From: a virus
Lineage: Duplodnaviria > Caudoviricetes
Reading direction: 5' to 3' (one strand)
Virus record (IMG/VR): IMGVR_UViG_3300008107_000634
Location: 1,991-65,990 of that record
Length of the DNA stretch: 64,000 bases
The number at the start of each line of letters is the position of its first letter. The first letter of the stretch is position 1. Below, piece after piece: positions 4,271 through 18,008 of the stretch. A program made the translations under genes and the position numbers. The notes below the pieces were generated by a model that did no database searches, was not told the DNA's origin, and saw nothing but the letters and a program-made list of their open reading frames with translations.

Positions 4271-4460
4271 CCACATCTTCAAGCCACTTCTCGATCCTGA
4301 GAACACCGCCGAAGCAGTCGATAGCCTTGTGGGAGTTCACCCACTCCGCATTCCTGCCCAGCCAGTTTGTGGCAAACGTCTTAGCCTCTTCGAGGCTGTT
4401 GAACTTACCCAGAACGTGCATACCGTCCATGCTCTCCGTCGTGACTTCATACACATACAT
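4248..4460 (-). CDS. hypothetical protein
   Basis: 70 aa with upstream AGGT RBS; stop lies in the D-loop of the CAU tRNA. Confidence 0.6.
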   Translation of the reverse strand: MYVYEVTTESMDGMHVLGKFNSLEEAKTFATNWLGRNAEWVNSHKAIDCFGGVLRIEKWLEDVGADSSVG

Positions 4461-4531
4461 CTACCTTAACTCCTCTTGGGGTTGCAGTTTTATACTGGTG
4501 AATATCATACAGCCTTGCAGCCGTTTTTGCA

Positions 4532-4690
4532 CTAATCAATTTCATACTCCGTAGAGAAATCTTCCTCATATCGACCCGCATAGATAGCCTCGGCTCGAGA
4601 CTCATAGGGGCCAATCAAGTTTCCACTAGGGTCGAACCAATACCACCCATCCGGTCGAAGTATGACATCAGGGTCTAGTGCGTTTCTCAT
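4532..4690 (-). CDS. small hypothetical protein (52 aa)
   Basis: Manual translation MRNALDPDVILRPDGWYWFDPSG..IGPY; promoter-like sequence upstream. Confidence 0.5.
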   Translation of the reverse strand: MRNALDPDVILRPDGWYWFDPSGNLIGPYESRAEAIYAGRYEEDFSTEYEID

Positions 4691-4799
4691 CTTGTAAACA
4701 TATTATCAGGGTCCGAGGCAGATGTCTAGAAGAAAAAAGATGTTAGATGTCAACAGGTTAGCGGCGGGCCGGGGCCGGGCGCTAAGCCCTTGAAAGGAC

Positions 4800-5090
4800 T
4801 TAGCTATTTGCTCGCTCGACAGCCTCACGCGGAGCCCAAGGATATGCTGTCCCTCGGAGGAAGCTCTTGATCCGGCGGCGAGTCCACATCAACTCCTTGG
4901 CGCTCTGACGCAGAGAACGGATAGTAATCTGGGCGAACCTGTCATCCGGGAAACGACGAAGGATAGCCTTGGTCGCTCGGATGCAGTTAGAGACCTCGTT
5001 GTAGTCGTTACGCCACTTGTCACGCTTCCTAATCCATTGGGAGTGGAGGCGACGGGTTTCTGCGGAAGCAATCGGAAAATCATTCATCAT
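4800..5090 (-). CDS. basic hypothetical protein
   Basis: 96 aa; stop lies in the hairpin arm of the 4750 repeat. Confidence 0.65.
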   Translation of the reverse strand: MMNDFPIASAETRRLHSQWIRKRDKWRNDYNEVSNCIRATKAILRRFPDDRFAQITIRSLRQSAKELMWTRRRIKSFLRGTAYPWAPREAVERANS

Positions 5091-5313
5091 GTGTCTACCT
5101 TACAGGTCTAATTGTTACTTGTCAATCACTTTTCTACCCGGTCGTCTAAATACTACCAGAGGTAGGCTTTGACAAGTGGCTGGCCCTATGCCCGCCTAGA
5201 AAGAAGGATACCATAGGTAGGGGTAGGGTCAAGACCAGAAATTGTTGTGTGGTTTCAAAGGGTTAGCGACGGGCCGGGGCCGGGGGCTAACCCCTTGACG
5301 GGGTTAGCTTTTT

Positions 5314-6057
5314 TCACCCATTGGCGAGACCGAGATCCCGCAGTTCCTTCTTGGAAAGTTGCAGCTTGCCGCTCCTGTAGAGGTCACCGATCTTGTCATG
5401 CCACTTGTCGGTGAAGATATCCTGTCGGGAGTAGGGGATGATGATGGTAACGATCTTGTCCCTCTCCATGCGGCGGATCTCCGTTCCGGTGACCTCGCCC
5501 CAAAGCACCTCATACCAGAGTCCGTCAACCTTTCGATATTCCGTTCCATCCTTGGCGACATGGATCTTGCTGGCCTCCTCGGCCGCCTTCTGATCCTTCC
5601 AGACCTTCCTCTCCTGCCGACGGGTCAGCTTCATCTTATTGCGAAGGAGGACGCCGGTAACCGGATGCACATACAGTCCGATGAAGCTGTTCTTCAGCAG
5701 GATGGGGGAGCGATACTTGTGGTAGATGACGACCTCGCCATCGACCATCGAGGTGCGGATCGCAACGAAGTCCTCGACATGATCCCTAACGTGCTGCTGC
5801 ACGGTGTTGTCGGCACGCAGGTTCTCGCAGATCTCGCTGTAAACCTTGTCCCAGAGCCGCCCGACACGACTCTCGATGAACCGGCGCAGCGGCGACAGAT
5901 TCTCGTTCAGCTCCTTGCCGCCCCAGTTACGGACATGGGGCGCGCGCATCCCCTCCTTGCTCGGAAGCAGATCGTGATCGGCCTTCCGACCCTTTCGAGT
6001 GCCGTAACCGCCTCGCCGGGGACGCTCCACCAGAACCTTGTTCATGTCTTTACGCAT
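5314..6057 (-). CDS. conserved hypothetical protein (MRKDMNKVLVERPRRGG...)
   Basis: 247 aa with GGAG RBS; fills the cassette between repeats 5255 and 6135. Confidence 0.75.
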   Translation of the reverse strand: MRKDMNKVLVERPRRGGYGTRKGRKADHDLLPSKEGMRAPHVRNWGGKELNENLSPLRRFIESRVGRLWDKVYSEICENLRADNTVQQHVRDHVEDFVAIRTSMVDGEVVIYHKYRSPILLKNSFIGLYVHPVTGVLLRNKMKLTRRQERKVWKDQKAAEEASKIHVAKDGTEYRKVDGLWYEVLWGEVTGTEIRRMERDKIVTIIIPYSRQDIFTDKWHDKIGDLYRSGKLQLSKKELRDLGLANG

Positions 6058-6341
6058 GGTTGCTCCTTCAAAACTTTATGCTGTGATCATATGCAGGAAC
6101 TAAGGACTTGTCCAGAAAAAATAAACGTGAGATTTCAATAGGTTAGCGACGGGCCGGGGCCGGGGGCTAACCCCTTGACGGGGTTAGCTTTTTTATCGCC
6201 TCCCTCGCATTAGAAGACGATTGTAGTCGCGGGCCGCGCGCTCGAACTCCCGGTCATAATGCGCCTTGCGATCAGGATCGTCCGACTGATTCGCCAGCGC
6301 CTTGTAGTGCTCGGCCACCTTGCGCTTCATTTCCAGTTCGC

Positions 6342-6538
6342 TCACTTTACTGCCCTCCAGAAGGAATTGAGAAACTCACTTGCCCTATCGAACTGCCCGG
6401 ACTCATAAAGGCTCTGCGCCTTATTGAAAACCCCGAACAGGTAGTCGAGACGCGGAGTCTCGAGTAGCGGATCGGCCATGAGATCCAGAAGGTCGTGTGC
6501 CATCTGAAGCTCGTCTCGCAGGGTTTCACGCGTCATAT
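6342..6538 (-). CDS. hypothetical protein (MTRETLRDELQ...)
   Basis: Part of a small operon; GGAG RBS in the preceding gene. Confidence 0.55.
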
Positions 6539-6696
6539 TCCTGCACCTCCTTGATGCTCTCGGCATTGATGTTCCACGCAAACAGGATATCCTGAACGCG
6601 CTCGCAGGCTGCACGGAAATCCTGCGCGAACACCATCTGCTTGTCCGTCGCGAGGGAGACGGGGTCCTTTTCGATCACAAACACAAACCGCTTCAT
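6526..6696 (-). CDS. small hypothetical protein (MKRFVFVIEKD...)
   Basis: GGAG RBS; promoter TTGCAT-16-TAAGAT upstream. Confidence 0.55.
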   Translation of the reverse strand: MKRFVFVIEKDPVSLATDKQMVFAQDFRAACERVQDILFAWNINAESIKEVQEYDA

Positions 6697-6832
6697 TTCG
6701 TTTCTCCGTTGTTGATAGGTGTATCTTACTCTAATCCGCGCACCATGCAAGCATTATTTTTGCGTTGAGTTTCAGAGGGTTAGCGGCGGGCCGGGGCCGG
6801 GGGCTAACCCCTTGACGGGGTTAGCGATTTCG

Positions 6833-7057
6833 CTACATGGCTTGTGGCGTGTTCACCATCGCCCACTCTAGCAACTCGATGCGATTACGCAGCTTCACCT
6901 CCAGCGCTGCGCTCACGCCCAGGAGGCGAGCCTGCTCCTTCACCTCAGCGCGGAGTCGCTTGATCTCCTGCGCCATATTCATCTCCGCTGCGGTGGGGCC
7001 TGCGTTCTCGGAGTCTCGTAGAACATCAACTTGAAATTCCCGGTAGATGTCGCTCAT
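6833..7057 (-). CDS. coiled-coil hypothetical protein (MSDIYREFQ...)
   Basis: GGAGG RBS before the inferred start. Confidence 0.55.
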   Translation of the reverse strand: MSDIYREFQVDVLRDSENAGPTAAEMNMAQEIKRLRAEVKEQARLLGVSAALEVKLRNRIELLEWAMVNTPQAM

Positions 7058-7209
7058 GGCTCGGCCTCCTTCTCCGCAACCTCGAACGCGTGCGAGCAAT
7101 ACTTACCGCAATAATCATCCTCAGACAAGCAAAGGCCTACATAAATCCCCGCAAGGAAAACAAGTACCAATACCCACAATATCGCCAACCCGATTGCAAC
7201 GATCATGGC

Positions 7210-7392
7210 TTAGTTCTCCTCCTCTAGACGCCCGTCGAGGGCAGGCTCGTTTTCCTCCCAGTAGGTAAAGAGGCTATTCATAGCCGCATTGACCTCTGCG
7301 AGCGTCTGGAACGTCACGCCGCGAGGACGATAGCCAAACGTGTCCTTGTAGAAGTCGGAGTATTCTGCCACAGCCTGCTCGAGATCCGTCAT
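7210..7392 (-). CDS. conserved small phage protein (YSDFYKDTFGYRPRG)
   Basis: AAGGAG RBS; promoter TTGACG-16-TAAATT at 7418-7445. Confidence 0.7.
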   Translation of the reverse strand: MTDLEQAVAEYSDFYKDTFGYRPRGVTFQTLAEVNAAMNSLFTYWEENEPALDGRLEEEN

Positions 7393-7516
7393 TGCTTGTC
7401 TCCTTTGTTGAGTTCTGAATTTATCATGTTCATCCTATGCGTCAACCACTAATTTTGAGCGAGATATCAATGGGTTAGCGGCGGGCCGGGGCCCGGGCCT
7501 AAGCCCTTGAAAGGGC

Positions 7517-7786
7517 TTAGGTTCCGTCGTCCACATCTCCCGAGTAGCCGTAGTCCTCGTCGGTTCCCCAGCCAGCCGAAGTCATCGCCGAGTCATGGTC
7601 ATCGTCCTTCGACTCATACATCTCGTCATCTTCGTCGTAATCGGACTCGAGGAACTCGTTACTCTTCGCCATTTCGGTGACCTCATCTTCCGACATCCAC
7701 AGGAGGCAGGCCTGGATCAGGGCGTCCTTGTCGATCGTCCCTTCCGCCACCATTTCGAGAAGCAAGGTCGTGTTCTTGCGAGGCAT
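7517..7786 (-). CDS. protein with an acidic C-terminus (DSAMTSAGWGTDEDYG)
   Basis: GGGAG RBS; stop lies in the hairpin arm of the 7467 repeat. Confidence 0.65.
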   Translation of the reverse strand: MPRKNTTLLLEMVAEGTIDKDALIQACLLWMSEDEVTEMAKSNEFLESDYDEDDEMYESKDDDHDSAMTSAGWGTDEDYGYSGDVDDGT

Positions 7787-7918
7787 ATCGTTCTCCCTTG
7801 TTGATGAGCACACTCTACACTATCCGCGCAGAGTTGCAACAACTATTTTTTCGTTGAATTTCAAAGGGTTAGCCGCTGGCTGGGGCTCCGCCCTAAGCCC
7901 TTGATATGGCTTAGTTTT

Positions 7919-7994
7919 TGGTAGAGCGTAGGGGATTCGAACCCCTGTCAACGGAGTGAAGTTCCGCTATCCTAGGCCACTAGACGAACGCTCC
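7919..7994 (-). tRNA. tRNA-Glu(UUC) with non-canonical anticodon loop
   Basis: Glu-type body (GTCTAGTGGCCTAGGA...AGGGGTTCGAATCCCCT), stem GCGGA/TCCGT, loop AC-TTC-AC, encoded CCA. Confidence 0.85.
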
Positions 7995-8003
7995 ATAAGT
8001 ATT

Positions 8004-8181
8004 GGGGGCCTCACGTTTGCAACCGTGAGGCCTAACCGACGTTCCCCCAGGCAGGACTAGGCCTTCCATATGAAGGGTACTACCTGCATTTCCACAGTTT
8101 ACAGCGTCTTACTTAGACGACTGGGGCACCAGTTGCGAAGACGTCTTCGCCGGGGTCGGCAGGGCTTTCGCCCGCCCAAAT
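8004..8181 (-). ncRNA. Structured RNA, copy B of a tandem pair (unassigned)
   Basis: Shares identical 44-nt and 36-nt ends with copy A; internal stems show compensatory changes. Confidence 0.7.
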
Positions 8182-8186
8182 GTAGT

Positions 8187-8333
8187 GGGGGCCTCACGTT
8201 TGCAACCGTGAGGCCTAACCGACGTTCCCCTAGACAGGCCTTGCACCTGCATTTCCGCCATCTGCGGCGTCCTTACTTGGACGACTAGGCACCGGCTTTC
8301 GCCGGGGTCGGCAGGGCTTTCGCCCGCCCAAAT
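8187..8333 (-). ncRNA. Structured RNA, copy A of a tandem pair (unassigned)
   Basis: GAAA-capped hairpins, closing stem CCGAC-CCCC/GGGG-AAC-GTCGG, four-way junction; promoter at about 8355-8386. Confidence 0.7.
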
Positions 8334-8457
8334 TCGTTTCTCCGTCGTTGATAGGTGTATCTTACCCGAAATCTTGCCTCATGCAACAACTATTTTTTCG
8401 TTGAGTTTCAATAGGTTAGCCGCGGGCCGGGGCCGGGCGCTAAGCCCTTGAAAGGGC

Positions 8458-8595
8458 TTAGCTTTCCTCCAAGGAGAGCAGGTGAAAGAAATAGTCGGCC
8501 TGCCTGTCCAGCTCGGCCTCCTCGGCCTCCTGAGAGTCCAGCCACTCCTCGTAACCCTGCCAGAGGGTGGGATCGTTGACGGCTTCCTCGAACAT
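8458..8595 (-). CDS. small acidic protein (45 aa)
   Basis: Manual translation MFEEAVNDPTLWQGYEEWLDSQEAEEAELD...; AAGGAGG RBS; stop lies in the 8408 repeat arm. Confidence 0.6.
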   Translation of the reverse strand: MFEEAVNDPTLWQGYEEWLDSQEAEEAELDRQADYFFHLLSLEES

Positions 8596-8861
8596 CGCGA
8601 CCTCCTTGGTGAGAATGGGAACTTAGCAGAATACGCTAGAGAGTCAACCACTTTTCTACCTAGTCGTCGAATTACTACCAGTCGTTGAATTACTACCGCA
8701 GGTAGCATACCCCTCAACTGACCTCTTCGCCCGCCTCCCAGGAACCAAGGGTATCAGGGATCGCCTAAATGGCAACCTCAGAAATTATCGTGAGATATCA
8801 ATGGGTTAGCCGGGGGCCGGGGCCCTGTGCTAAGCCTTTGAAAAGGCTTAGCTTTTTAGGG

Positions 8862-9062
8862 TCAGTCTGACCAACCCCCGAGGCTATCGCGACCCCCCTC
8901 GTCGCAGTCGGTGAGGTAGGCGTGCAGGTTGTCCCACGCCTCGACCGCTGCCTCCACGTCGGTCAGCTCGGCCATCACCTCGGCGGAGGGAGCCTCGCCG
9001 AAGGCGCGCGTGTGGAACGCGACGAAGCGCGCGACGTGGTATTCAAGATCAAGATCAACCAT
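8862..9062 (-). CDS. small acidic hypothetical protein
   Basis: AGGAG RBS; occupies one cassette. Confidence 0.65.
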   Translation of the reverse strand: MVDLDLEYHVARFVAFHTRAFGEAPSAEVMAELTDVEAAVEAWDNLHAYLTDCDEGGRDSLGGWSD

Positions 9063-9258
9063 CAGTCATCTCCTATGTGGGTATTCAAAACTAGCAGAGC
9101 CAACACGCAAGTCAACCTTTATTTTTGCGTGCGATATCAACGGGTTAGCCGGGGGCCGGGGCCCGCCGCCAAGTGCTTGATATCTAACGATAATTTTTTC
9201 TCTTGCAAAGTCTAGGAAGGCAGTCTAGTCTAGCGATAGTCAATCAAGGGAGTCCTCC

Positions 9259-9456
9259 ATGAACCTCGAAGCCCACAACCTCACCCTCAACCCCGTCCCC
9301 GTCCACTCCGCGCGCGGGTGCTGGTCGTGGCACTTCACCTGCGGCAGCCGTCTAGCCTTCGTCCTCGACGTCCCCGCCCGCACCATGGAGCAGAGTCGGA
9401 GGGTGGCCATCCTCCGTGCCATCAGCATTGCGGAGGACGAGAACCTACGCAACTAA
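9259..9456 (+). CDS. hypothetical protein (plus-strand cassette)
   Basis: GGGAG RBS; promoter TTGCAA-17-TAGTCT at about 9204-9232. Confidence 0.55.
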   Translation: MNLEAHNLTLNPVPVHSARGCWSWHFTCGSRLAFVLDVPARTMEQSRRVAILRAISIAEDENLRN

Positions 9457-9534
9457 ATTTGCGTGCGATATCAATAGGTTAGCCGGGGGCCGGGGCCCGG
9501 TGCTAAGCCTTTGAAAAGGCTTAGCTTTTTAGGG

Positions 9535-9753
9535 TCAGCGGAGGAATTTTGTGACCGGGTGCGACTTGTTCTCCCCCGTGTTCGCGTTCAGGACAACCTG
9601 TCGCGTGCGAACCCACTCCAGCTCGCTCGCGTATTTTCCGTAGATCGGGTGCGTGAAAACCTTCTCGAGCACCTTCTCGACAGGCTCCGGAGTCAGCGAC
9701 GTATAGATCATCCCGCGACCCAGATTGACTTCGTGAAGATTCGCAACAACCAT
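9535..9753 (-). CDS. hypothetical protein
   Basis: 72 aa, GGGAG RBS, one cassette. Confidence 0.6.
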   Translation of the reverse strand: MVVANLHEVNLGRGMIYTSLTPEPVEKVLEKVFTHPIYGKYASELEWVRTRQVVLNANTGENKSHPVTKFLR

Positions 9754-9896
9754 TTTTCGTCTCCCTTGTTGATGGCGGCACTATATAGAAACTTGCGATC
9801 CCTGCAAGCATTATTTTTTGTGTGCGATATCAAAGGGTTAGCCGGGGGCCGGGGCCCGCCCCTAACCCTTTGAAAGGGCTAGGGATTTTGTGGGCC

Positions 9897-10140
9897 TTAC
9901 TTCCCGAAGTGCTCGACCAAGCGCTGCAGCAGATCCGAGGACTCCCAGTCCGAAGGGCCGTTGGCCATCGGGCCGGGATTGAAGGGCGACGTGCTGAGCA
10001 CGCTGTACAGGTTGGAACGCTGCCCCGAGTGGTATTCGCTCGCAAACCAATAGATGGTTTCCTCACGAGTCCACTGGTCGACGTCGGGGACCATTTCGTC
10101 GATGACGTTGTCGAGAGTTTCGCGATTCGGATCTTGCATG
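9897..10140 (-). CDS. hypothetical protein (MQDPNRETLD...)
   Basis: GGGAG RBS before the inferred start; one cassette. Confidence 0.55.
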
Positions 10141-10304
10141 GGTATCTCCCTGTTGATGGACTCACTATACAGCAGTTTCGCGTTAGCGCAAGCATTATTT
10201 TTTGCGTTGAGTTTCAAGGGGTTAGCCGGGGGCCGGGGCCCGCCCCTAACCCTTTGAATTGTCTCGGTTTTTTCGGCGGTAGAGCTTCTTCATTTTGGAC
10301 CCTT

Positions 10305-10514
10305 TCACGCTGGGAGGAGGCCATAGGCGCGAGCGGCATAGGCAGCGACCCAACGCTCACGCTCGGAGAGGTCACGGAACCTGCGAGGACCGAAAGGCTG
10401 CCCCACTTCGAGGAGACGCTCGCCCACGCGCGAGAGTTCATTGGCCCACGCAAGGTCTTCGCAGTTTTGCTCTGCATCATTGAGCATCAGGCGGGCGAGG
10501 TGCTTGAGGTCCAT
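10305..10514 (-). CDS. hypothetical protein (MDLKHLARLML...)
   Basis: GAGGAG RBS; promoter shared with the 12.5-13.5 kb cassettes. Confidence 0.6.
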   Translation of the reverse strand: MDLKHLARLMLNDAEQNCEDLAWANELSRVGERLLEVGQPFGPRRFRDLSERERWVAAYAARAYGLLPA

Positions 10515-10714
10515 GTCTGTTCTCCTCAGTTGATACATATAATATAGGGCATCGCACCCCAGTGGTCAACAGGATTCTTTCGTCTAGATGCAAAAAAGAT
10601 GTGTTTAAGATCAATGGGTTAGCCGCGGGCCGGGGCTCCGCCCTAACCTATTGAATTAGCACTGATTTTCTACCTCATAGAATTACTACCACAGGTAGTA
10701 GTTTTACTACCACC

Positions 10715-10867
10715 TCACCTATCATAGGCGCGATCGAGTCGATCTTCCTCGAGCCGGTTGGCAGCGCGCCAGCCCCGCTGCCAGCTAGCAGCGTCCTCTT
10801 CCGTCATGTTCTCGGGGCGAAGCTTGCCGCTATAGTAGGCTTCATATCCGGCATTGTAGTAGTCCAT
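10715..10867 (-). CDS. Rmf/CrpP-like small protein (50 aa)
   Basis: Manual translation MDYYNAGYEAYYSG...AASWQRGWRAA; pattern Y-x-x-G-Y-x-A...W-x-x-G-W. Confidence 0.5.
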   Translation of the reverse strand: MDYYNAGYEAYYSGKLRPENMTEEDAASWQRGWRAANRLEEDRLDRAYDR

Positions 10868-11238
10868 GCGTCGACTCCTGTTTTGAACGTCCCCTTATAT
10901 AGGGCCGAGTCTCGTTTTATGCAAGATCTTTCTTATGCAAGAAGCGCATGGCCCTATGCATCCTAGCTCTCAAAAAAAGCGTTATAGATCAATGGGTTAG
11001 CCGCGGGCCGGGGCCCGTCGCTAAGTAGTTGATTCTAAACGATAATTTTCGCGTCTCGCGCCCGATCCGCTTGCAAGAACCGTGCCAAGTCGCGACTCGG
11101 CCGAATCGGCGGGGCTAGACCCTAGCATGACCGCCGACTCTGCAGAAAAAAACGCATCGCGCGAAAATAATTCCGTTGTATCTTTAGAGGCGACGCCCTA
11201 TATATCTCCCATCGCAACGGACAACAACGGAGTCTCCC

Positions 11239-11490
11239 ATGTCCTTCGACCCCGCCGCCACCCTCGCCATCCTCGCCGCCGGTCCCGCGCTCGTGACGTT
11301 CACGAAGAAGGACGGCACGGACCGGACGATGCGCTGCACGCGCTCGCCGGACCTGCTCCCGCCCGGCGCGGGCAAGGGGACGGACACGCGGAAGGATCAG
11401 GGCAACCTGATCGCCGTCTTCGACCTCGACGCTCAGGCGTGGAAGGGTTTCTTCTTCGACAGGATGGTGGCGATCCAGCCGATCGCCTAA
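11239..11490 (+). CDS. WYL_2-like (Sm-like beta-barrel) phage protein, copy 1
   Basis: VTFTKKDGTDRTMRCT...VFDLDAQAWKGF pattern. Confidence 0.7.
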   Translation: MSFDPAATLAILAAGPALVTFTKKDGTDRTMRCTRSPDLLPPGAGKGTDTRKDQGNLIAVFDLDAQAWKGFFFDRMVAIQPIA

Positions 11491-11818
11491 CCTGTCAAGG
11501 GAAAAATGCGCCACTATGGCGCATTTTTTTTGTCTAAAGCGTTGGCACAGTTCTTGCAAGGCCGGCTGTGGTTAGGGGCAGAAAAAAGCCAACGATATCA
11601 ATGGGTTAGCCACGGGCCCGGCCCCGCCGCTAAGTATTTGATTCTAAACGATAATTTTCGCGTCTCGCGCCCGATCCGCTTGCAAGAACCGTGCCAAGTC
11701 GCGACTCGGCCGAATCGGCGGGGCTAGACCCTAGCATGACCGCCGACTCTGATTTTTGTTGAACGGAATCGGGCGCATCCCTATCTTATGCATAGTCAAC
11801 AACGCAACGGAGTCGAAC

Positions 11819-12004
11819 ATGGATAGCCTGAACCTCATTTCTCAGATCACCTACGACGAGATCAGGAACGATCCCGCGCTCTGCGGTCGAGTCATGGCCT
11901 ATCTGTCCATAGCGGTGCATGGACTCCCGGAGGATGGATTCACGCACAAGTGGCTCGCAGCCGAGTTTGCAAAGGAAGTCGCGAAGATCAAGGAGTCGCG
12001 CTGA
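11819..12004 (+). CDS. small helical hypothetical protein (paralogue family with 16463 and 16688)
   Basis: CAACGGAGTCGAAC-ATG leader; promoter TTGAAC-17-TATCTT at 11759-11787. Confidence 0.65.
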   Translation: MDSLNLISQITYDEIRNDPALCGRVMAYLSIAVHGLPEDGFTHKWLAAEFAKEVAKIKESR

Positions 12005-12090
12005 TGGATTATCTTATTCTCGGCCTCTTCGCGATCATCGGGCCTTATCTGGCCGTCTGGCTTTCGGTCTGGCTAGGCCCACGCGACTAG
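12004..12090 (+). CDS. 28-aa hydrophobic peptide
   Basis: TGATG coupling; MDYLILGLFAIIGPYLAVWLSVWLGPRD. Confidence 0.4.
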   Translation: MDYLILGLFAIIGPYLAVWLSVWLGPRD

Positions 12091-12265
12091 CCGATTCGCA
12101 AAGGCGAGGCAAGAAAAAAATCTTCGTGCCATGCGATTTTTTTCTTGCCTCTAGCAGGCGACTCGCTTAGTCTGCTAGTGTGGGAATCCGACCTAACGTG
12201 TCCAGCGGGTTGGCACGATTCTTGCAAGCCACGCAGGCCCTAGACGGATAAAAAAGCCAACGATA
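12088..12265 (+). repeat. ~180-bp non-coding block duplicated at about 15686-15865 (hairpin, sigma70 promoter, sigma54 box)
   Basis: Near-identical sequence in both places. Confidence 0.85.
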
Positions 12266-12326
12266 TCAATGGGTTAGCCCCGGGCCGGGGCCCCGCCCTA
12301 AGCCCTTGAAAAGGCTTAGGAAATTG

Positions 12327-12527
12327 TCAAGGGTCTATTTTGCCAAAATCCTTCACCCGAACCACAAGAGTGGAAGCAGCTATCATAAAACCCTCCTTGA
12401 AATGAGCGAACACGCTTCCATCTGGGTGACCAGACAGTATCACCCCCTGCTTGTCGCACATATCGCGCAGCTTCTCAACGAAGTCGCGACGGGACTTGGG
12501 GGTAGACTTCTTAGTGGTCTTGGCCAT
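12327..12527 (-). CDS. hypothetical protein (KKSTPKSR family), paralogue of 13307
   Basis: Shared N-terminus TKKSTPKSR..FV.KLR..C.K. Confidence 0.7.
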   Translation of the reverse strand: MAKTTKKSTPKSRRDFVEKLRDMCDKQGVILSGHPDGSVFAHFKEGFMIAASTLVVRVKDFGKIDP

Positions 12528-12675
12528 CTCTGTCTCCTCGGTTGATATCTACACCATAGGGCATCGCCTCCCAGAGGTCAACCTAATTCTTTATGTTTAA
12601 AATCAATGGGTTAGCCACGGGCCGGGGCCCAGCCCTAAGCCCTTGAAAAGGCTTAGGATTTTCTGGGGGCCTAGT

Positions 12676-12855
12676 TCAGTCCTTCAGGATGTCCTGAAGA
12701 ATCCACAGGTCCGACCGGACGTCGGACATGCTGGTGTAGTGGTCCTGGACACCATTAAGCATCGCGTCGGCGAGGTTGCGCGCCTGCGCCAGCTTGTCGC
12801 GAAGGCTGGCGATCTCCGCAATGAGGTCGGCGGTCTGGGTGGTGGCGTCGGTCAT
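12676..12855 (-). CDS. small coiled-coil protein (59 aa, MTDATTQTADL...)
   Basis: Manual translation; GGGAG RBS; not in the ORF track. Confidence 0.55.
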   Translation of the reverse strand: MTDATTQTADLIAEIASLRDKLAQARNLADAMLNGVQDHYTSMSDVRSDLWILQDILKD

Positions 12856-13017
12856 CTAGAACTCCCTTGTTAATGTTTACAATATAGGGTATCGCACCCT
12901 AGCGGTCAACCTAATTCTTTAGCCCGGTGCAAAAAAGATGTGTTTAAAATCAATGGGTTAGCCACGGGCCGGGGCCCAGCCCTAAGCCCTTGAAAAGGCT
13001 TAGGGTTTTCTGGGGGC

Positions 13018-13275
13018 CTACATTCCAGTAGCGTCGGAGAACCATTTCCAGTCCTTTTCCGACTTCTGCTCCAGACGCTCGACCTCGCGTTCCAGCATCT
13101 GGACGCGGGCGCGAAGGCGGTTGATTTCGGCCACCAGAGGGCTCACATCCTCGACCTTTACATAATCGCCCTCTTCGAGCGGCACCAAATAATCATCATA
13201 ATCTCCGGCGAAATCCCACCGCTGGGGCATCTGGACGGTGGTGGCTTCGGTCATCGCTGTCTCCTTGGTGATCAT
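13018..13275 (-). CDS. hypothetical protein with C-terminal coiled coil
   Basis: 85 aa; a later start at MTEATT with AAGGAG RBS is possible. Confidence 0.6.
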   Translation of the reverse strand: MITKETAMTEATTVQMPQRWDFAGDYDDYLVPLEEGDYVKVEDVSPLVAEINRLRARVQMLEREVERLEQKSEKDWKWFSDATGM

Positions 13276-13306
13276 GGGGTCAGTATAGGCGGCTTCCGGG
13301 ACAAAG

Positions 13307-13495
13307 TCAAGTGCCTATCTCAGGCCACAAGCGGACAAACTGTACCGCGTCCTCCCCTCCATCCAGGAAATGGGCAATCGCGTTCCCATCCTGGTCGCCA
13401 AACAGGAGCACGTTATGCTTGGCGCACAGGGCGCGAAGCTTGGCGACGAAGGCCGCGCGGGACTTGGGGGTCGATTTCTTGGTGGCGTCGGTCAT
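13307..13495 (-). CDS. hypothetical protein (KKSTPKSR family)
   Basis: GAGGAG RBS before MTDATKK. Confidence 0.65.
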   Translation of the reverse strand: MTDATKKSTPKSRAAFVAKLRALCAKHNVLLFGDQDGNAIAHFLDGGEDAVQFVRLWPEIGT

Positions 13496-13644
13496 CGCTG
13501 TCTCCTCTGTTGATGTCTGCACCATAGGGTATCGCGCCCTAGCGGTCAACCTAATTTTTTGGCCCTACGCAAAAAAGATGCGTTTAAAATCAATGGGTTA
13601 GCCACGGGCCGGGGCCGGGCTCTAACCTATTGAATTAGCACTAA

Positions 13645-13730
13645 TTTTCTACCAGTCATCATATTACTACCATTCGTTGAATTACTACCACTGGTAGTAG
13701 TTTTACTACCAGTCGTTGAATTACTACCAT
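13645..13730. repeat. TTACTACC(AGTCGTTGAA) repeat cluster; related clusters at 5130-5166, 8652-8706, 10666-10712
   Basis: Direct repeats with an ~18-bp unit plus a CTACC-N3-GGTAG palindrome. Confidence 0.75.
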
Positions 13731-13854
13731 TTAGCCTAATTTAGGCCTAAAAACACCCCCGTAAGTGCTTGATTCTAAAGGCTTTTTTTGGCCTTCCGAT
13801 ACCGATTCTGCCCCTTTTGCTGGTCGTTTCGCCCAGCCGGGCGTTGCCCGGAAG

Positions 13855-13995
13855 CCACACCTGTGGCAAAAGAGCAACTGTGGCAAATTTGCCACACCGT
13901 GATTTTCATGCAACTGTGGCTGGTTTGTCACGCTGTGGCCTTTCTGCAACTGTGGCCAAGATGTCACAGCGTGGCCGCCTTGCCACGCTGTGACA
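13855..13995. repeat. cluster of TGTGGC/GCCACA/GTCAC(A/G) direct and inverted repeats
   Basis: About ten occurrences in 140 bp of non-coding DNA. Confidence 0.7.
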
Positions 13996-14003
13996 TTTTT
14001 GCA

Positions 14004-14378
14004 TCACCCCTCGAGTCTGGCAAGTTGCCATTGCATTGCGGCAATCTTGCGGCGCACCGAGTCGGCATCGCCCGACTCGCCGATCGCCGTGTTACATTCA
14101 AAGCAAAGCACCGCAAGGTTTCCCGTCACATACCCTAGCTCAGGGCGAATCTTGTGGAGGCTAGGCGAAAGGGTATGCGACTCCTTGTCGCCAAAGGCGA
14201 GGAAGCGGTCGCAATGCTCGCAAACCATGGACCGGCCCTTGCGGCGCAGGACGGAGTCAATGGCGTGCGCTAGCGACTCCGAGTCCAGACAAGGAATCGC
14301 CTTGCCCTTGTCGCGCGCGACTCGCACGCGCGACAGGGTATTGTTTCGGATATTGCGAGCATCGCGGGAGGCTTTCAT
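14004..14378 (-). CDS. HNH-like endonuclease
   Basis: CEHC...PSLHKI...GYVTGNLAVLCFECN; TAATG coupling to the upstream ORF gives the start at 14378. Confidence 0.6.
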   Translation of the reverse strand: MKASRDARNIRNNTLSRVRVARDKGKAIPCLDSESLAHAIDSVLRRKGRSMVCEHCDRFLAFGDKESHTLSPSLHKIRPELGYVTGNLAVLCFECNTAIGESGDADSVRRKIAAMQWQLARLEG

Positions 14379-14572
14379 TAGCGGGACTCCGTGGCGAGGG
14401 TAAGGGCGCGGCGAGCGGCCGCATCGCGGCTCTTCCGCATAGTGCGCTCCGCGACGTCGATATCGCAGAACCATGCACCGTTGCGCATGAAACGCCATGT
14501 CCAAGAGCCGCGCGCGACGTAGACGGGCGACTCCTGCATGGTGATTCCGAGGCTGGCGAGGGTAGACGACAT
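14378..14572 (-). CDS. hypothetical protein (MSSTLASLG...)
   Basis: CAACGGAG leader; promoter TTGATT-17-TATCTT. Confidence 0.55.
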   Translation of the reverse strand: MSSTLASLGITMQESPVYVARGSWTWRFMRNGAWFCDIDVAERTMRKSRDAAARRALTLATESR

Positions 14573-15082
14573 GAGCGACTCCGTTGCGTTGTGGACTATG
14601 CATAAGATAGGGAGTCGCCATCCTAGAATCAACGGACTCGAGCTATCTATTTTTGCATGGCTGCCATGCGTATTTTGCAATGGACTCTTGCGGGCCTATC
14701 AGGCAATGTGCTAGTGTGGAGATCCGACTCGGCGCGTCCGGCGGGTTGGCACGATTCTTGCAAGGCTGCGGGGTTGGCACGATTCTTGCAAGCCGCGCAG
14801 GCCATAGATGGATAAATTGTCGTTTAGAATCAATGGGTTAGACGTGGGGCCGGCCCCGCCGCTAAGTATTTGATTCTAAACGATAATTTCCGCATTTCGC
14901 GCCAGAATCGCTTGCAAGAACCGTGCCAAGTCGCGACTCGGCCGAATCGGTGGGGCGCTACCCTAGCATGGCCGCCGACTTTGCGTCAACAGAAAAAAAC
15001 GCATCGCGCGAAAATTTTTTCGTTGAACGGAATCGGGCGCATCCCTATCTTATGCATAGTCCACAACGCAACGGAGTCGACC

Positions 15083-15307
15083 ATGAAATACATCGCCGAG
15101 TGCCGCTTCCCCGCCCACCCGAATTCCAGTCTCGCGCGTGACGGTTTCACGTCGTGGGGCGAGCGGTGGACGATCACCGCCGACTCCGTCGAGTCGGCTC
15201 GCGCCAAGGTTCTCGCGCGCTTCGCGGATCCGATGCGTCCTTCCTATCGCGAAGGCTGGGTCGAGTCGCTGGAAACCTCCGAATCGTGGGACGCCCGTCG
15301 CCGCTGA
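15083..15307 (+). CDS. hypothetical protein (MKYIAECRF...)
   Basis: CAACGGAG leader; same promoter as 11819. Confidence 0.6.
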   Translation: MKYIAECRFPAHPNSSLARDGFTSWGERWTITADSVESARAKVLARFADPMRPSYREGWVESLETSESWDARRR

Positions 15308-15357
15308 CGGGCTGGCGCGAATCGCCTAGCATCACAACGCAAACAACGGAGTCGCCC

Positions 15358-15468
15358 ATGCTTCCCATCTTCAATATCTCGACTCGCCGCGTCGGCGGTA
15401 TCCGCTTCCTGAAAATCGGGCGCTTCACGTTTTCGTTTTGCGTCGCGCGTTCCTATCGCCCTCTGTAA
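15358..15468 (+). CDS. 36-aa basic peptide (GGIRFLKIGRFTFSFCV)
   Basis: CAACGCAAACAACGGAG leader. Confidence 0.5.
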   Translation: MLPIFNISTRRVGGIRFLKIGRFTFSFCVARSYRPL

Positions 15469-15479
15469 GGAGTCCCGCA

Positions 15480-15689
15480 ATGAATCATCCCATCTTGGAT
15501 GCCGTCTATCTGACTCGCCGCTTCGCCGAGTCCTTCAATAACGGCCAGCCTTTCCCGCAAGCCGCCGCTATCGGCGCGCTGCGTGCGCTTGTGGAAAGCC
15601 TGATCCTAGAGGTTGACTCGGAGACTCGCGAGGCTGTCATGGCAAGCATGAATCGTGAAATCGAGCGCAACCAGAATCGGCGCGCCTAG
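15480..15689 (+). CDS. hypothetical protein (MNHPILDAV...)
   Basis: AAGGAG RBS. Confidence 0.55.
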   Translation: MNHPILDAVYLTRRFAESFNNGQPFPQAAAIGALRALVESLILEVDSETREAVMASMNREIERNQNRRA

Positions 15690-16155
15690 CCGATTCGCAA
15701 AGGCGAGACAAGAAAAAAAATCTTCGTGCCATGCGATTTTTTTCTTGCCCCTAGCAGGCGACTCGCTTAGTCTGCTAGTGTGGGAATCCGACCTAACGTG
15801 TCCGGCGAGTTGGCACAGTTCTTGCAAGCCACGCAGGCCTTAGATGGATAAAAAGGCCAACAATATCAATAACTTAGGCGTGGGGCCGGCCCCGCCGCTA
15901 AGTAGTTGATTCTAAAAGCTTTTTTTCGCGTTTCGCGCCCGATCCGCTTGCAAGAACCGTGCCAAGTCTCGACTCGTCCGAATCGGCGGGGCGCTACCCT
16001 AGCACGCGAGCCTGCCGCGCGTCAAGCGCCTATCTAGCCCAGTCTGGTGTAATTAGTCGCACCGGGCTGGACTATTTAGGCGACGAGCCCCCTTGCAACG
16101 AATCGGGCGCGCGCTTATCTTCCATCTATCGCAACGGACAACAACGGAGTCTCCC

Positions 16156-16404
16156 ATGTCCTTCGACCCCGCCGCCGCCCTCGCCATCCTCGCCGCTGGC
16201 CCGGCCCTCGTCACCTTCACGAAGAAGGATGGCACGGAGAGGACCATGCGCTGCACGCGCTCGCCGGACCTGCTCCCGCCCGGCGCGGTCAAGGGGACGG
16301 ACACGCGGAAGGATCAGGGCAACCTGATCGCCGTCTTCGACCTCGACGCTCAGGCGTGGAAGGGCTTCTTCTTCGACAGGATGGTGGCGATCCAGCCCGC
16401 TTGA
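16156..16404 (+). CDS. WYL_2-like protein, copy 2
   Basis: Near-identical to 11239..11490; different promoter (TTGCAA-17-TATCTT). Confidence 0.7.
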   Translation: MSFDPAAALAILAAGPALVTFTKKDGTERTMRCTRSPDLLPPGAVKGTDTRKDQGNLIAVFDLDAQAWKGFFFDRMVAIQPA

Positions 16405-16462
16405 CGGGCTGGCGCGAATCGCCTAGCATCCAAGCATCACAACGCAAACAACGGAGTCGAAC

Positions 16463-16642
16463 ATGACGCCTCGCCAGACCATCACTGACATCGCCTTCGA
16501 GGATTTCAAGAGCCCTGCCTTCACGGGCACGATCATCGCGTGCCTCGCCGAGGCCGTCGATTGCCTCGCGCAGGATGATCCCATGCGCCAGACCATCGTC
16601 GACATGATCGTGCGGGCGAAGGAGTCTCGTCGACGCGCCTAA
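16463..16642 (+). CDS. small helical protein, distant paralogue of 11819 and 16688
   Basis: Manual translation MTPRQTITDIAF...PAFTG..IA.L..AV..L...KESR; same leader. Confidence 0.55.
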   Translation: MTPRQTITDIAFEDFKSPAFTGTIIACLAEAVDCLAQDDPMRQTIVDMIVRAKESRRRA

Positions 16643-16687
16643 TGCGGCAGGCGCTACCTACCCACAACGCAAACAACGGAGTCGAAC

Positions 16688-16876
16688 ATGAAGTCTCTCA
16701 ATCTCCTCGATCAAGTCACCTTCATCGCCATGCGCAAGGACCCGGAGCTTTGCGGCCGACTCCTCGCCTATCTCGATACGGCGCTTCGCAAGCTGCCCGA
16801 GTCGAGCGTCGAGCATAGGTGGATCGCGGACCAGCTCGCGAAGGACGTCGCGAAGATCAAGGAGTCGGGTGGATGA
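16688..16876 (+). CDS. small helical protein, paralogue of 11819
   Basis: M.SLNL..Q.T....R.DP.LCGR..AYL...AK.VAKIKES. Confidence 0.65.
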   Translation: MKSLNLLDQVTFIAMRKDPELCGRLLAYLDTALRKLPESSVEHRWIADQLAKDVAKIKESGG

Positions 16877-17021
16877 TCGAAATCGAAATTGAATCTAGAC
16901 CGGGGCGGTTCCGAGGACTTGCTTTTTCAATCGGTCTCATCGCTCCTCTCCAGAGCCTTGACCAGGGAAATTTTTTGACTTTTTTAAGACTTCCCGCCAT
17001 AGGCTGAGCCTAGCACACGTT

Positions 17022-17186
17022 ACCAGCGTTTATGCACTCCGTGCATACGTCCGTAACGCAGGTGCACACGTTACCAGCGTCTATGCACTCCGTGCAATCT
17101 TGACCAGCGTTTATGCACTCCGTGCATTAAGACCCACGCCCGTGCAAACGCTTGTGCAAACGCTTGTGCAAACGCCCGTGCAAATA
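17022..17186. repeat. 3x ACCAGCGTYTATGCACTCCGTGCA plus 4x GTGCAAA at a 12-bp period, upstream of terS
   Basis: Units at 17022, 17073, 17103; GTGCAAA at 17142, 17154, 17166, 17178. Confidence 0.85.
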
Positions 17187-17223
17187 AAAAAAAATTGACC
17201 ACCTCTCGGCCCCGTGCTAGTGT

Positions 17224-17664
17224 ATGAGTATGAATGAAATCTCTACCCGCGATGTGCTTAATCGCTCTCTTGAAGCCCCAGAAATAGATCCTGTTCTACT
17301 CGGTATAGCAAACCGCCATATCGAGGGAGACACAATTCAAACTATTGCCACCCAGTTCAATATAAGTGAGGACCGGGTTGCACAGGTTTTAGATCGCCGA
17401 GAGGTTAAGCAATATGTGGATCAAGTCTACTTATCACAAGGATTTCTCAACAGATTCAAAAGAATCCAATTGATTAATCAAGTGATAGAAAAGAAGATCC
17501 AAGATGTTGCTCTTGGAGAAGAATATACTAAGAAAGATCTCCTTGAGTGGCTACGTCTACTCCAGGATATGGATAAGTCAGCTCGTCCGCAACAAAAAGG
17601 TCCTACTGTAGCTGTGCAGGTTAATAACTATGATAGCCTTATGCAAGACCTAATGGAGAAATAA
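17224..17664 (+). CDS. terS: terminase small subunit (T5-like)
   Basis: HTH N-terminus, REVKQYVDQVYL, KKDL and VQVNNYDSLM..L motifs as in T5-type TerS; leaderless promoter TTGACC-17-TAGTGT. Confidence 0.7.
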   Translation: MSMNEISTRDVLNRSLEAPEIDPVLLGIANRHIEGDTIQTIATQFNISEDRVAQVLDRREVKQYVDQVYLSQGFLNRFKRIQLINQVIEKKIQDVALGEEYTKKDLLEWLRLLQDMDKSARPQQKGPTVAVQVNNYDSLMQDLMEK

Positions 17665-18008
17665 TGGCAGGTTTTGGAATAGACCGATATGGTCCCATTT
17701 CACTTTTACGTCCTAGAATTAGTCGCGCTCATACTGTTACAGTTACAGAAGCCGATCAGGTTTTAGGCCCTTGGGCTAGTGAGACTATAGTTATAGGTCT
17801 TGTAGCTAGTGGTGGTAGTGTATTCTATCAAGGTGGTTTTGAAGACACACAAACTAGCCAAGGAGCTAATGCTCATTTCCTTGCTGAGGGAGTTCCGCTC
17901 ATGGTTAACGTAGGAACACCTGGTACGCAAGATAGACATCGTTACATGGCAGTAAGACTTGTAGACCCTACAACTACGGTCCAGTTCTATGTGACCGAGT
18001 TTGAATAA
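17664..18008 (+). CDS. hypothetical virion-associated protein
   Basis: TAATG coupling to terS. Confidence 0.65.
   Translation: MAGFGIDRYGPISLLRPRISRAHTVTVTEADQVLGPWASETIVIGLVASGGSVFYQGGFEDTQTSQGANAHFLAEGVPLMVNVGTPGTQDRHRYMAVRLVDPTTTVQFYVTEFE

Follow-up and report, generated by a model that had tools for sequence, protein, structure and literature searches.

Sigma-54-type boxes phased with predicted IHF sites at the edges of early cassettes in a T5-related freshwater phage

In the sigma-54 promoters Pu of Pseudomonas putida, nifH and glnHp2, a helically fixed distance separates a -24/-12 box of the TGGCAC-N5-TTGCA type from a strong IHF site, and the stable closed complex awaits an ATPase activator. 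IHF binds these promoters upstream, at about -40 to -80, in the gap between enhancer and promoter. Host sigma-54 recognition sequences also occur in phages, as in Pseudomonas phage YuA, whose promoters precede particle-formation and lysis genes and are described, in the summary that PMC10914365 gives of Ceyssens et al. 2008, as demonstrably rpoN-dependent. The phage considered here, which is widespread, uncultured, freshwater and related to T5, carries the same type of box at a helically fixed distance from a predicted strong IHF site, and a similar waiting closed complex is proposed for it. Unlike in Pu, nifH and glnHp2, the IHF site lies downstream, on the -12 side at about +10 to +43, and the boxes have neither a conserved upstream enhancer nor a dedicated gene following them. 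This geometry is the reverse of that of textbook sigma-54 promoters. Unlike those of YuA, the boxes are predicted sites that head no operon of their own, pair with IHF sites and face outward from cassettes.

An exact search of the window, the whole 64-kb stretch of DNA that was analysed, returned precisely the nine TGGCAC-N5-TTGCA boxes reported in the initial annotation, against 0.02 expected by chance. Each of them is part of a perfect 19-mer, TTGGCAC[AG][AGT]TTCTTGCAAG, in short TTGGCAC-RR-TTCTTGCAAG, and together they span positions 11070-15965, with starts at 11542, 12210, 14746, 14774 and 15810 on the plus strand and at 11070, 11679, 14911 and 15947 on the minus strand. No further box was found in the 64 kb with loose patterns, and no degenerate copy with up to four mismatches except a single chance match at 42703. 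The geometry first described was also confirmed: the gap between TTGCA and the TCAA of the IHF consensus is exactly 39 nt at eight of the nine boxes, the ninth (14746) forms a 28-bp tandem repeat with 14774, every box is directed at an IHF element, and three IHF pairs (11598, 14830 and 15866) have a box on both flanks. Two further pairs (10988 and 12266) have a single box. An extended -10-like motif, TGCTAG[GT]GT, lies co-oriented 28-30 nt upstream of seven of the nine boxes.

The leftmost IHF-pair element (10987..11034) consists of two inverted IHF-type cores flanking a GC core and has a box on its right side only; its right core matches WATCAANNNNTTR (11022-11034, minus strand) and its left core, GATCAATGGGTTA, has a single mismatch at the first position. 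The box, TTGGCACGGTTCTTGCAAG (11070..11088, minus strand), reads leftward at the 5' outer edge of the cassette of a WYL_2 (Sm-like SH3) gene (11239..11490, plus strand), which is box-bracketed even in the most divergent relatives. A conserved 'tail' of repeat family D2 (11089..11148) adjoins this box and contains the co-oriented extended -10-like motif TGCTAGGGT (11119, minus strand). Reading rightward 11 nt past the terminator of this cassette, the plus-strand box 11542..11560 faces the IHF pair TATCAATGGGTTA ... TAAGTATTTGATT (11596..11643; A-tract at 11581-11588), on whose other flank the minus-strand box 11679..11697 reads leftward, 62 bp upstream of and divergent from a rightward sigma-70 promoter (11759-11787). 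The plus-strand box 12210..12228, which reads rightward past the terminator of cassette 2, forms a half-element: an IHF site and GC core are followed by a CCTAAGCC/GGCTTAGG hairpin of terminator type (12264..12326), so that the right half has a hairpin instead of a second box.

Between the box-bearing junctions lies an iteron zone (13650..14000) of TTACTACCA and CTGTGGC repeats, three of the latter reading TTTGCCACA, one mismatch away from the DnaA-box consensus. Beside the iterons lies an endonuclease VII / HNH-like gene (14004..14378, minus strand). Of the tandem plus-strand boxes, which form a 28-bp repeat, the distal copy (14746..14764) is separated by 67 nt from the IHF core, and the proximal one (14774..14792) sits at a divergent junction next to a leftward promoter (14604-14632). 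They are followed by the most palindromic IHF pair (14828..14875; RNA fold z = -6.4 over 14803-14900) and by the leftward-reading minus-strand box 14911..14929, just upstream of which is a leftward sigma-70-like promoter, TTGACG-18-TAGGGT (14960-14989). At the last junction, the IHF pair TATCAATAACTTA ... TAAGTAGTTGATT (15864..15911) has boxes on both sides: a plus-strand one (15810..15828) that reads rightward past the terminator of cassette 3, and a minus-strand one (15947..15965) that reads leftward upstream of the second WYL_2 cassette (gene at 16156-16404), near a leftward sigma-70-like promoter (15996-16025).

The boxes thus follow an orientation rule, bracketing rightward early cassettes and facing outward: the 5'-edge box diverges from the sigma-70 promoter of the cassette, and the other box points outward just past its terminator. 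The initial annotation stated that no ORF is served, which is correct for four of the nine boxes, whereas the other five aim, past the IHF element, at cassettes on their own strand that begin 250-300 bp off. These cassettes, like every other, also have a strong sigma-70 promoter of their own, and RNA contig ends fit sigma-70 rather than sigma-54 starts (a weak indication, from contigs only). The box zone heads a T5 pre-early-like gene array, with matches to the T5 dNMPase and A2-like genes, and the cassettes sit in the T5-like pre-early / cis-acting zone of the phage. Neither a sigma-54 activator (PF00158 or a GAFTGA motif) nor rpoN was found in the window together with 10 kb to its right (G001) and 9 kb to its left, ~84 kb in all.

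The true unit is the half-element, in which a box is followed by a spacer of 37 nt (±1) and a lambda-H'-like IHF site, an A-tract plus WATCAA-N4-TTR, with the -12 side of the box always proximal to the A-tract. The layout of the predicted site, A6GC-N6-TATCAA-N4-TTR, matches that of lambda H'. The symmetric super-element of ~154 bp proposed at first occurs, at 156 bp, only where two boxed cassettes abut, and it is not obligatory, because half-elements are common and are the sole form in the most divergent relatives.

Conservation was assessed in 37 related freshwater metagenome contigs by an unbiased survey anchored on their 362 IHF half-sites. A box with at most four mismatches was present at offset 55-57 of 49 half-sites (~13%), all remaining half-sites had at least seven mismatches, and none of the 362 carried a decayed box with five or six. 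The family consensus is nTGGCAYRRNTYTTGCAAG. Its 16 variants differ solely at positions 1, 7 (C/T), 8 (G/A), 9 (G/A), 10 (any) and 12 (C/T), whereas TGGCA and TTGCA are unchanged in all of them; the hypergeometric chance that six variable sites all avoid the ten core positions is ~0.003. The published sigma-54 consensus is YTGGCACGrNNNTTGCW, and the letters allowed at the variable positions agree with it. The boxes therefore behave like selected sigma-54 recognition sites that vary at non-contact positions only, in line with their original assignment as RpoN -24/-12 elements.

Sequences upstream of the boxes fall into at least eight unrelated classes in the relatives, which makes the box a conserved island, and no upstream enhancer is shared among the box classes of the family. 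Spacer sequences divide into ten unrelated classes (mean identity 37%), yet their length stays at 36-38 nt, and the invariance of the arm claimed for the window extends to the relatives at 38-40 nt. Drift of the GG/GC positions or of the 39-bp arm had been named beforehand as evidence against the idea; the relatives show neither. An arm kept at 38-40 nt despite spacer replacement argues for a joint box-IHF nucleoprotein geometry. In the divergent relatives L049, L062, L065, L066 and L051, both flanks and the spacer are unalignable, yet the core of the box is retained and so is the spacing of 39-40 nt. Duplications arose independently at the same junction: the window, L038 and L050 repeat a 28-bp unit, L051 has a 53-bp face-to-face unit, and both kinds of copy are out of phase with IHF. 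Many contigs are close strain variants (92-98% identity) between which modules shuffle at their edges, with breakpoints in the IHF/GC core and where promoter and tail meet (e.g. 11751/11752) but not at the box.

Sequence constraint, phasing, the orientation rule and modular shuffling are thus features of this DNA. We tentatively favour the reading that the boxes are genuine docking sites for sigma-54 holoenzyme phased with IHF, serving as poised, activator-dependent outward promoters within shuffling regulatory modules. In the mechanism that we infer, host sigma-54 RNA polymerase would recognise the boxes with high affinity, and a box and the IHF site starting 38-40 nt beyond its -12 element would act as one working unit. 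Holoenzyme docked at the box would form a closed complex, and IHF at about +10 to +43 would bend the DNA near +24, so that the GC core and the DNA downstream fold back onto the polymerase. This complex would stay poised until opened by an enhancer-binding ATPase, encoded by the host or by the phage outside the surveyed DNA. Outward transcription would then cross the inter-cassette element, running in sense into the next cassette from five boxes and in antisense or into a terminator from four. A downstream enhancer has a precedent in FleQ sites, which occur upstream or downstream of sigma-54 promoters (bioRxiv 10.1101/2021.08.29.457346), and phage promoters that depend on sigma-54 have one in YuA, as outlined in PMC10914365. 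Against poised promoters count the lack of an activator in the surveyed ~84 kb and of a shared enhancer among the box classes, the sigma-70 promoters of the cassettes together with the RNA contig ends, the four gene-less boxes and the out-of-phase tandems; downstream IHF should also hinder open-complex formation. We know of no sigma-54 promoter with IHF placed downstream in this way.

In an alternative that we consider rather unlikely but the strongest competitor, the boxes would not be transcribed from: sigma-54 holoenzyme, or free sigma-54, and IHF would be captured solely to build a stable bent nucleoprotein complex on the early-entering, T5-like cis-acting zone. Such a complex might mark a boundary, structural or topological; it might stop or anchor DNA during transfer, in analogy to the T5 injection stop signal; it might silence the co-oriented TGCTAGKGT sigma-70-like promoters that lie 28-30 nt upstream; or it might serve as a sink that takes up host sigma-54. 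Every copy is a maximal-affinity consensus, favouring a locked closed complex; neither activator nor enhancer was found in the surveyed DNA or box classes; phasing to ±1 bp suits an architectural complex; independent duplications amplified box number; and, where a sigma-70-like start has a box at its +15 to +45, the box would compete with the polymerase using that start. The position of the zone, at the head of the pre-early-like array beside an HNH-type gene and DnaA-box-like iterons, recalls the T5 repeat regions that Davison proposed as a DnaA-mediated injection stop (bioRxiv 10.1101/866236), and orphan sigma-54 sites of E. coli are mostly bound inactive, their role being debated between distant or antisense promoter, decoy and architecture (PMC4591121). 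However, a sink requires neither orientation nor phasing, and the divergent relatives manage with two boxes; a pure decoy, as once suggested, leaves the ±1 bp phasing unexplained. The injection-stop analogy is positional guesswork, and the DnaA-like boxes are imperfect. Roadblocks insulating cassettes, also suggested earlier, fit poorly, as most inter-cassette elements lack boxes (49 of 362 half-sites have one) and in E. coli no roadblock effect was seen where RNAP-sigma54 was bound within genes (PMC4591121).

It is improbable that the 19-mers are sites of a different, phage-encoded or recombinase-like protein marking the inverted ends of mobile or shuffling cassettes, with IHF as an accessory factor as at transposon ends and the sigma-54 match coincidental. 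At Tn10-type ends the terminal repeat typically lies at a fixed distance from an IHF site, which the present arrangement resembles. The boxes indeed enclose rightward cassettes in the manner of inverted repeats, so the geometry of the inverted cassette ends first envisaged is right; strains show mosaic cassettes, the zone contains an endonuclease VII / HNH-like gene, and invariance (TYTTGCAAG) reaches past the minimal sigma-54 consensus, with CTTGCAAG being a palindrome. The substitution pattern nevertheless favours sigma-54: a chance match to all 10-12 informative positions is unlikely, variation is confined to the exact positions and letters that sigma-54 tolerates, and the face-to-face arms of L051 differ at free positions only, in a non-compensatory manner. 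Moreover, the box-bracketed cassettes have no target-site duplications, no recombinase or transposase was found in the surveyed DNA, and strain breakpoints miss the box. That functionless boxes hitch-hike in a recombination-spread intergenic module, their identity and spacing reflecting recent common descent, is very unlikely: window modules are repeats 72-100% identical among themselves, many contigs are close strain variants and few half-sites are boxed, but the divergent relatives keep core and spacing amid unalignable surroundings, decayed boxes are absent from the 362 sites and substitutions avoid the core.

Besides sigma-54 promoters, several systems resemble parts of the poised, IHF-phased arrangement that we favour. 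PeSL cassettes of T4-type phages are likewise repeated promoter-plus-stem-loop modules that border small early genes in a hyperplastic region and act as recombination substrates for modular shuffling (PMC2839356, PMC4122927), as the strain mosaics with module-edge breakpoints suggest here. They belong to a different phage lineage and comprise only a sigma-70 early promoter and a terminator-like hairpin, with no sigma-54 box or IHF pair. The T5 repeat regions also form a non-coding zone, beside pre-early and HNH endonuclease genes, in which direct and inverted repeats abound; its ~130-bp inverted units are separated by kilobases and bear paired sites at which a DNA-binding protein of the host would bind (predicted in our case). 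However, the T5 sites are DnaA boxes, not sites of sigma-54 or IHF, the sequences are not homologous, and the injection-stop model is itself a hypothesis (bioRxiv 10.1101/866236). The orphan and intragenic sigma-54 sites of E. coli (Bonocora et al. 2015, PMC4591121) are similarly conserved at non-canonical positions, but they are single, inside genes and unphased with IHF, whereas those of the phage are intergenic, multi-copy, perfect-consensus and IHF-coupled. Five unrelated phage contigs (L008, L012, L015, L023 and L031) from uncultured phages also have non-coding control regions with several consensus boxes, some of them paired in tandem or face to face; no activator gene was seen in them, and none of their 116 boxes has an IHF site at the 37-40 nt position. 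The IHF-phased half-element is confined to the phage family studied here.

The motif TGGCAC-N5-TTGCA occurs at nine exact sites in the 64-kb window, against an expectation of 0.02 from shuffled sequences, and all nine sites extend to a perfect 19-mer, TTGGCAC[AG][AGT]TTCTTGCAAG. The plus strand carries five of these boxes (11542, 12210, 14746, 14774 and 15810), and the remaining four (11070, 11679, 14911 and 15947) are on the minus strand; the exact search recovered every box listed in the initial annotation and none elsewhere in the window. Allowing up to four mismatches added a single match, far from the boxes and attributable to chance, and looser sigma-54 patterns revealed no additional site in front of any other gene of the window. 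The published sigma-54 consensus is YTGGCACGrNNNTTGCW, and each of the nine boxes carries the GG and GC dinucleotides ten bases apart within it. The boxes are limited to a 5-kb zone between the leftward cassette array and the small terminase gene at 17224.

The IHF site predicted beside each box is a full site with an A-tract, AAAAAAGC-N6-TATCAA-N4-TTA, which is the layout of lambda H', and it is always the A-tract side that faces the box. The gap between TTGCA and the TCAA of the IHF consensus is 39 nt for eight of the nine boxes, while the ninth, at 14746, is a tandem copy at 28 bp; exact search and site measurement confirmed both the fixed distance and the tandem partner described earlier. 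With the C of TTGCA taken as -12, the A-tract falls at about +12 to +20 and the bend at about +24; the core then occupies roughly +28 to +40, and the GC core is centred close to +51. By definition, a sigma-54 promoter has its enhancer upstream, and IHF often binds between the two; here the IHF site lies downstream of every box. The basic unit is the half-element, composed of box, spacer and IHF site, and not the symmetric element. Half-elements stand alone at 11070 and 12210, and in L065 and similar divergent relatives only one cassette is bracketed, so that each box faces an IHF element with an empty far side. The symmetric super-element of ~154 bp initially proposed as the unit does exist, with a length of 156 bp, but only where boxed cassettes abut or at the divergent junction 14640–15023, and its halves occur alone both in the window and in relatives.

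The window phage family includes one IMG/VR contig (L032) and 37 metagenome loci (L033–L069), and conservation was surveyed in the family by using the IHF core as a box-independent anchor and inspecting the region 52–66 nt upstream. A box (up to four mismatches, offset 55–57) was present at 49 of 362 IHF half-sites; no half-decayed boxes were seen, the remaining half-sites all having at least seven mismatches. TGGCA and TTGCA were invariant in the 49 family copies, and changes were confined to degenerate positions of the consensus. Among the 16 different box sequences, substitutions occur at positions 1, 7 (C/T), 8 (G/A), 9 (G/A), 10 (any) and 12 (C/T) and nowhere else, giving the family consensus nTGGCAYRRNTYTTGCAAG. 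The hypergeometric chance that all six variable sites fall outside the ten core positions (TGGCA and TTGCA) is ~0.003, and the letters permitted at the variable positions are those of the published sigma-54 consensus. The upstream flanks of the boxes comprise at least eight unrelated sequence classes, with no conserved site common to the box classes, and the spacer comprises ten sequence classes with a mean identity of 37%. Its usual length is 37 nt; the relatives that have diverged furthest have 38 nt, and a single copy has 36 nt. Drift of the GG/GC positions or of the spacing in homologues, a check proposed with the initial annotation, was thus not observed, as the core is invariant and the spacer stays within 36–38 nt.

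These results show that the box and its IHF site form a real, conserved feature with an unusual geometry. Because the 19-mer fits every informative sigma-54 position, follows the corresponding substitution pattern and forms an island in unrelated flanks, sigma-54 is its best-supported identity, and, provided that the host has rpoN, the boxes are probably sigma-54 recognition sites. Across ten spacer classes the box keeps its phase to the IHF site to within one bp, which indicates that the two sites act together. At the sequence level, identification as a sigma-54/IHF module is well supported, with either transcription or architecture as its possible output. The co-action of box and IHF argues against a mere sink or decoy and against a mere roadblock, both of which had been suggested for the boxes; moreover, RNAP-sigma54 bound in E. 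coli did not act as a roadblock (PMC4591121).

In IMG/VR, the pattern box-N36-38-IHF was found in the window family only. A GTDB scan returned six singletons in unrelated taxa, which is the chance level and therefore provides no hint of a host or prophage, and the ESM Atlas neighbours of the TctA gene were viral clusters only, with no clue to the host. Distant-mode blastn against phage and plasmid databases gave no match to 10900–16100, and the nearest record, G001, which covers ~10 kb to the right of the window, is without the boxed region, a box or PF00158. What is new here is the IHF-phased, outward-facing module, which its restriction to the window family in IMG/VR and its chance-level occurrence in GTDB mark as a new element; a literature search, with most subscription papers outside its scope, found neither sigma-54 modules with downstream IHF nor phage arrays of sigma-54 boxes described. 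In the 19-mer search of IMG/VR, sigma-54 boxes in tandem or face to face also turned up in ~20 unrelated phage contigs; dense consensus arrays in non-coding DNA are among them (L008:410–600, L015:655–750, L023:10910–11400, L031:2640–2810 and L012:2590–2720). The unrelated arrays include face-to-face pairs 1–18 nt apart and tandem runs spaced 25–37 bp. The arms of the box pairs in L008 and in the divergent relative L051 differ at free positions without compensation, which points to selection on each box and led us to reject a hairpin-arm reading of the face-to-face boxes. A general IHF link of phage sigma-54 arrays was also rejected, none of 116 boxes in the unrelated contigs having an IHF site at the critical distance, and these arrays are treated as leads. 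The window module is a well-constrained addition to such recurring, apparently undescribed clusters of sigma-54 boxes in phage genomes.

Bases 1–18,000 of the window are densely filled with one-promoter small-gene cassettes split by IHF-pair/GC-hairpin elements, and every cassette has a good sigma-70 promoter of its own and a Shine-Dalgarno sequence. All four rightward cassettes have a leftward box upstream of the sigma-70 promoter, 62–131 bp away and divergent from it, and three of them have a rightward box directly after the terminator; the fourth, which ends before terS, has no box there. The family contig L038 displays the same orientation pattern, and a WYL_2 (Sm-like) gene heads the cassette whose bracketing by boxes extends to the most distant relatives. 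The initial statement that no ORF is served holds for four of the nine boxes, which have no same-strand cassette downstream, but not for the other five, each of which has a same-strand cassette downstream. A co-oriented TGCTAG[GT]GT motif lies 28–30 nt upstream of seven of the nine boxes (copies at 11119, 11728, 12173, 14709, 14960, 15773 and 15996) and may serve as an operator or as a sigma-70 promoter directed outward. The small terminase promoter, TTGACC-17-TAGTGT, contains this extended -10-like motif too, and two of the copies near boxes also have a TTGACG -35. The copies at 11119 and 11728 are part of a GCTAG-N3-CTAGC palindrome. The terminase promoter (window 17195–17233), which has a TG extension, ends directly at the ATG of the gene, so that its mRNA may be leaderless; a second ATG is located at 17230, and three 33-bp direct repeats just upstream of the promoter (17013–17126) may be a pac or activator site.

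The window comes from an uncultured tailed phage that is a distant relative of T5. The fused prohead protease-capsid gene has its best matches in T5-like phages (~31% identity), and terminase, portal and tail genes are also present. The G+C content is 52–58% in the cassette array (1–18,000) and 27–49% in the structural genes (18001–64000). The same junction is seen in the independent IMG/VR contig L032 (1–2700 versus 2700–5793), and the sharp split is therefore not a chimeric assembly. The leftward array, annotated via precomputed Pfam matches on contigs sharing exact proteins, encodes a homologue of the T5 dNMPase (Dmp) and weak T5 A2-like proteins (window 2764–3234, minus strand; L078:8188–8658, 9013–9327 and 11548–11943), which identify it as a T5 pre-early-like region. 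Beyond the left end of the window it extends for at least 9 kb, a distance over which IHF elements are numerous and no further sigma-54 box occurs. The boxed zone also holds TTACTACCA and CTGTGGC iterons, whose arrays (13650–13730 and 13850–13995) adjoin an endonuclease VII/HNH-like gene and are both kept in L051 (7040–7300). In three of the iteron units the sequence is TTTGCCACA, which differs from a DnaA box by one mismatch, and two of these units are placed back-to-back at 13879–13896; no strict DnaA box was found in window 1–18 kb. Possible roles of this region are those of an origin, a cluster of operators or a site like the T5 iss. The interval 10900–16100 is nearly intact (~0.9 word share) in at least 14 DNA runs, which carry freshwater, lake or 'fungus' metagenome labels and belong to at least nine studies (2017–2025), and the cassettes also occur in RNA-library (metatranscriptome) contigs, indicating an abundant and widespread phage.

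Neither PF00158 nor a GAFTGA motif was detected in the window, G001 and L078–L083, contigs that include DNA left of the window (~84 kb in all, with ~20–30 kb of the phage outside). RNA contig ends match the sigma-70 starts at 15063, 11805/11812 and 11227, a weak hint only, as these are assembled contigs. Cover over the super-elements is sparse, which says nothing on sigma-54 transcripts because the RNA contigs break at repeats. A small-RNA reading was rejected, since RNAs predicted from box start to hairpin fold no better than shuffles (z 0.1 to -0.7) with the exception of the 14803–14900 palindrome, and Rfam covariance models gave no meaningful match in 9000–17500.

We tentatively favour, at somewhat less than an even chance, a poised docking module that fires outward transcription. 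A sigma-54 holoenzyme closed complex would sit on the box, the IHF bend just downstream would fold the GC core and distal DNA onto the polymerase, and an enhancer-type ATPase would trigger outward transcription across the inter-cassette element. FlrC and FleQ act at downstream enhancers of flagellar sigma-54 promoters. Such downstream enhancers have been described (bioRxiv 10.1101/2021.08.29.457346), and phage YuA uses sigma-54 promoters according to a citation in PMC10914365. Against the poised module, IHF at +10 to +43 should hinder open-complex formation, neither an activator nor a shared enhancer was found in the ~84 kb, four of the boxes have no gene to serve, and the extra tandem and face-to-face box copies are out of IHF phase.

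A non-transcribing role of the box-IHF units is less likely. It fits the perfect consensus, the lack of a detected activator and the recurrent multiplication of boxes at a single junction, as well as the surroundings, where pre-early genes, an HNH gene and DnaA-box-like iterons border a non-coding repeat zone that recalls T5 repeat regions. In one variant, the units would silence the co-oriented sigma-70-like promoters; an open complex at such a promoter would overlap with the footprint of sigma-54. With rather low probability, sigma-54 holoenzyme and IHF of the host serve as structural components and not as a transcription device; in the T5-like pre-early/cis-acting zone, the phased units would then assemble into sharply bent, locked complexes. 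These could hold or pause incoming DNA as an injection-stop or anchoring signal, with sigma-54 and IHF replacing the T5 DnaA boxes, or they could clamp outward sigma-70-like promoters until the phage displaces sigma-54; in both cases a polymerase in its closed complex would act as an architectural DNA protein. Binding by a different protein or a cassette-end function, as in the earlier suggestion of inverted cassette ends, is improbable: the geometry is attractive, but no recombinase was found in the surveyed DNA, target duplications are absent and breakpoints lie elsewhere. Transposon or MITE ends with IHF were rejected, as the flanks outside the boxes lack target-site duplication, half-elements are frequent and no transposase was found. 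Neutral hitch-hiking of the boxes is contradicted by the divergent relatives and is very improbable. Downstream-phased IHF, an outward orientation and no visible activator would represent either a new sigma-54 wiring or a locked closed complex serving as a DNA-bound structure, and the size of the 160-bp element suits direct in vitro work with E. coli proteins.

Repeat families D1–D13 are located at the cassette borders, and strain contigs, L034, L050 and L068 among them, have a mosaic structure relative to the window. They break at module edges such as 11751/11752, within the promoter/RBS segment that modules share, and within the IHF/GC core. RNA-library contigs from two metatranscriptome runs join 11480, at the 3' end of the WYL_2 gene, to 15305 or 16636, indicating strain variants with reshuffled cassettes in nature. 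Module shuffling is known for the PeSL regulatory cassettes of T4-type phages (PMC2839356, PMC4122927). The window modules resemble these in that mosaic breaks fall at module edges, and a repeated border module is combined with strain mosaicism breaking there; such shuffling accounts for copy number, not for the selective retention of the box core. For the repeat regions of T5, in which conserved non-coding inverted repeats carry DnaA boxes in pairs at the inner edge of the first-step-transfer DNA, a host-protein-mediated injection stop has been proposed (bioRxiv 10.1101/866236). A pre-early-like context, an HNH-type gene and three one-mismatch DnaA-like boxes would fit a T5-type injection-stop/repeat region, while strict DnaA boxes are lacking from 1–18 kb. 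The element lies in a zone resembling this still unexplained cis-acting repeat region of T5-like phages.
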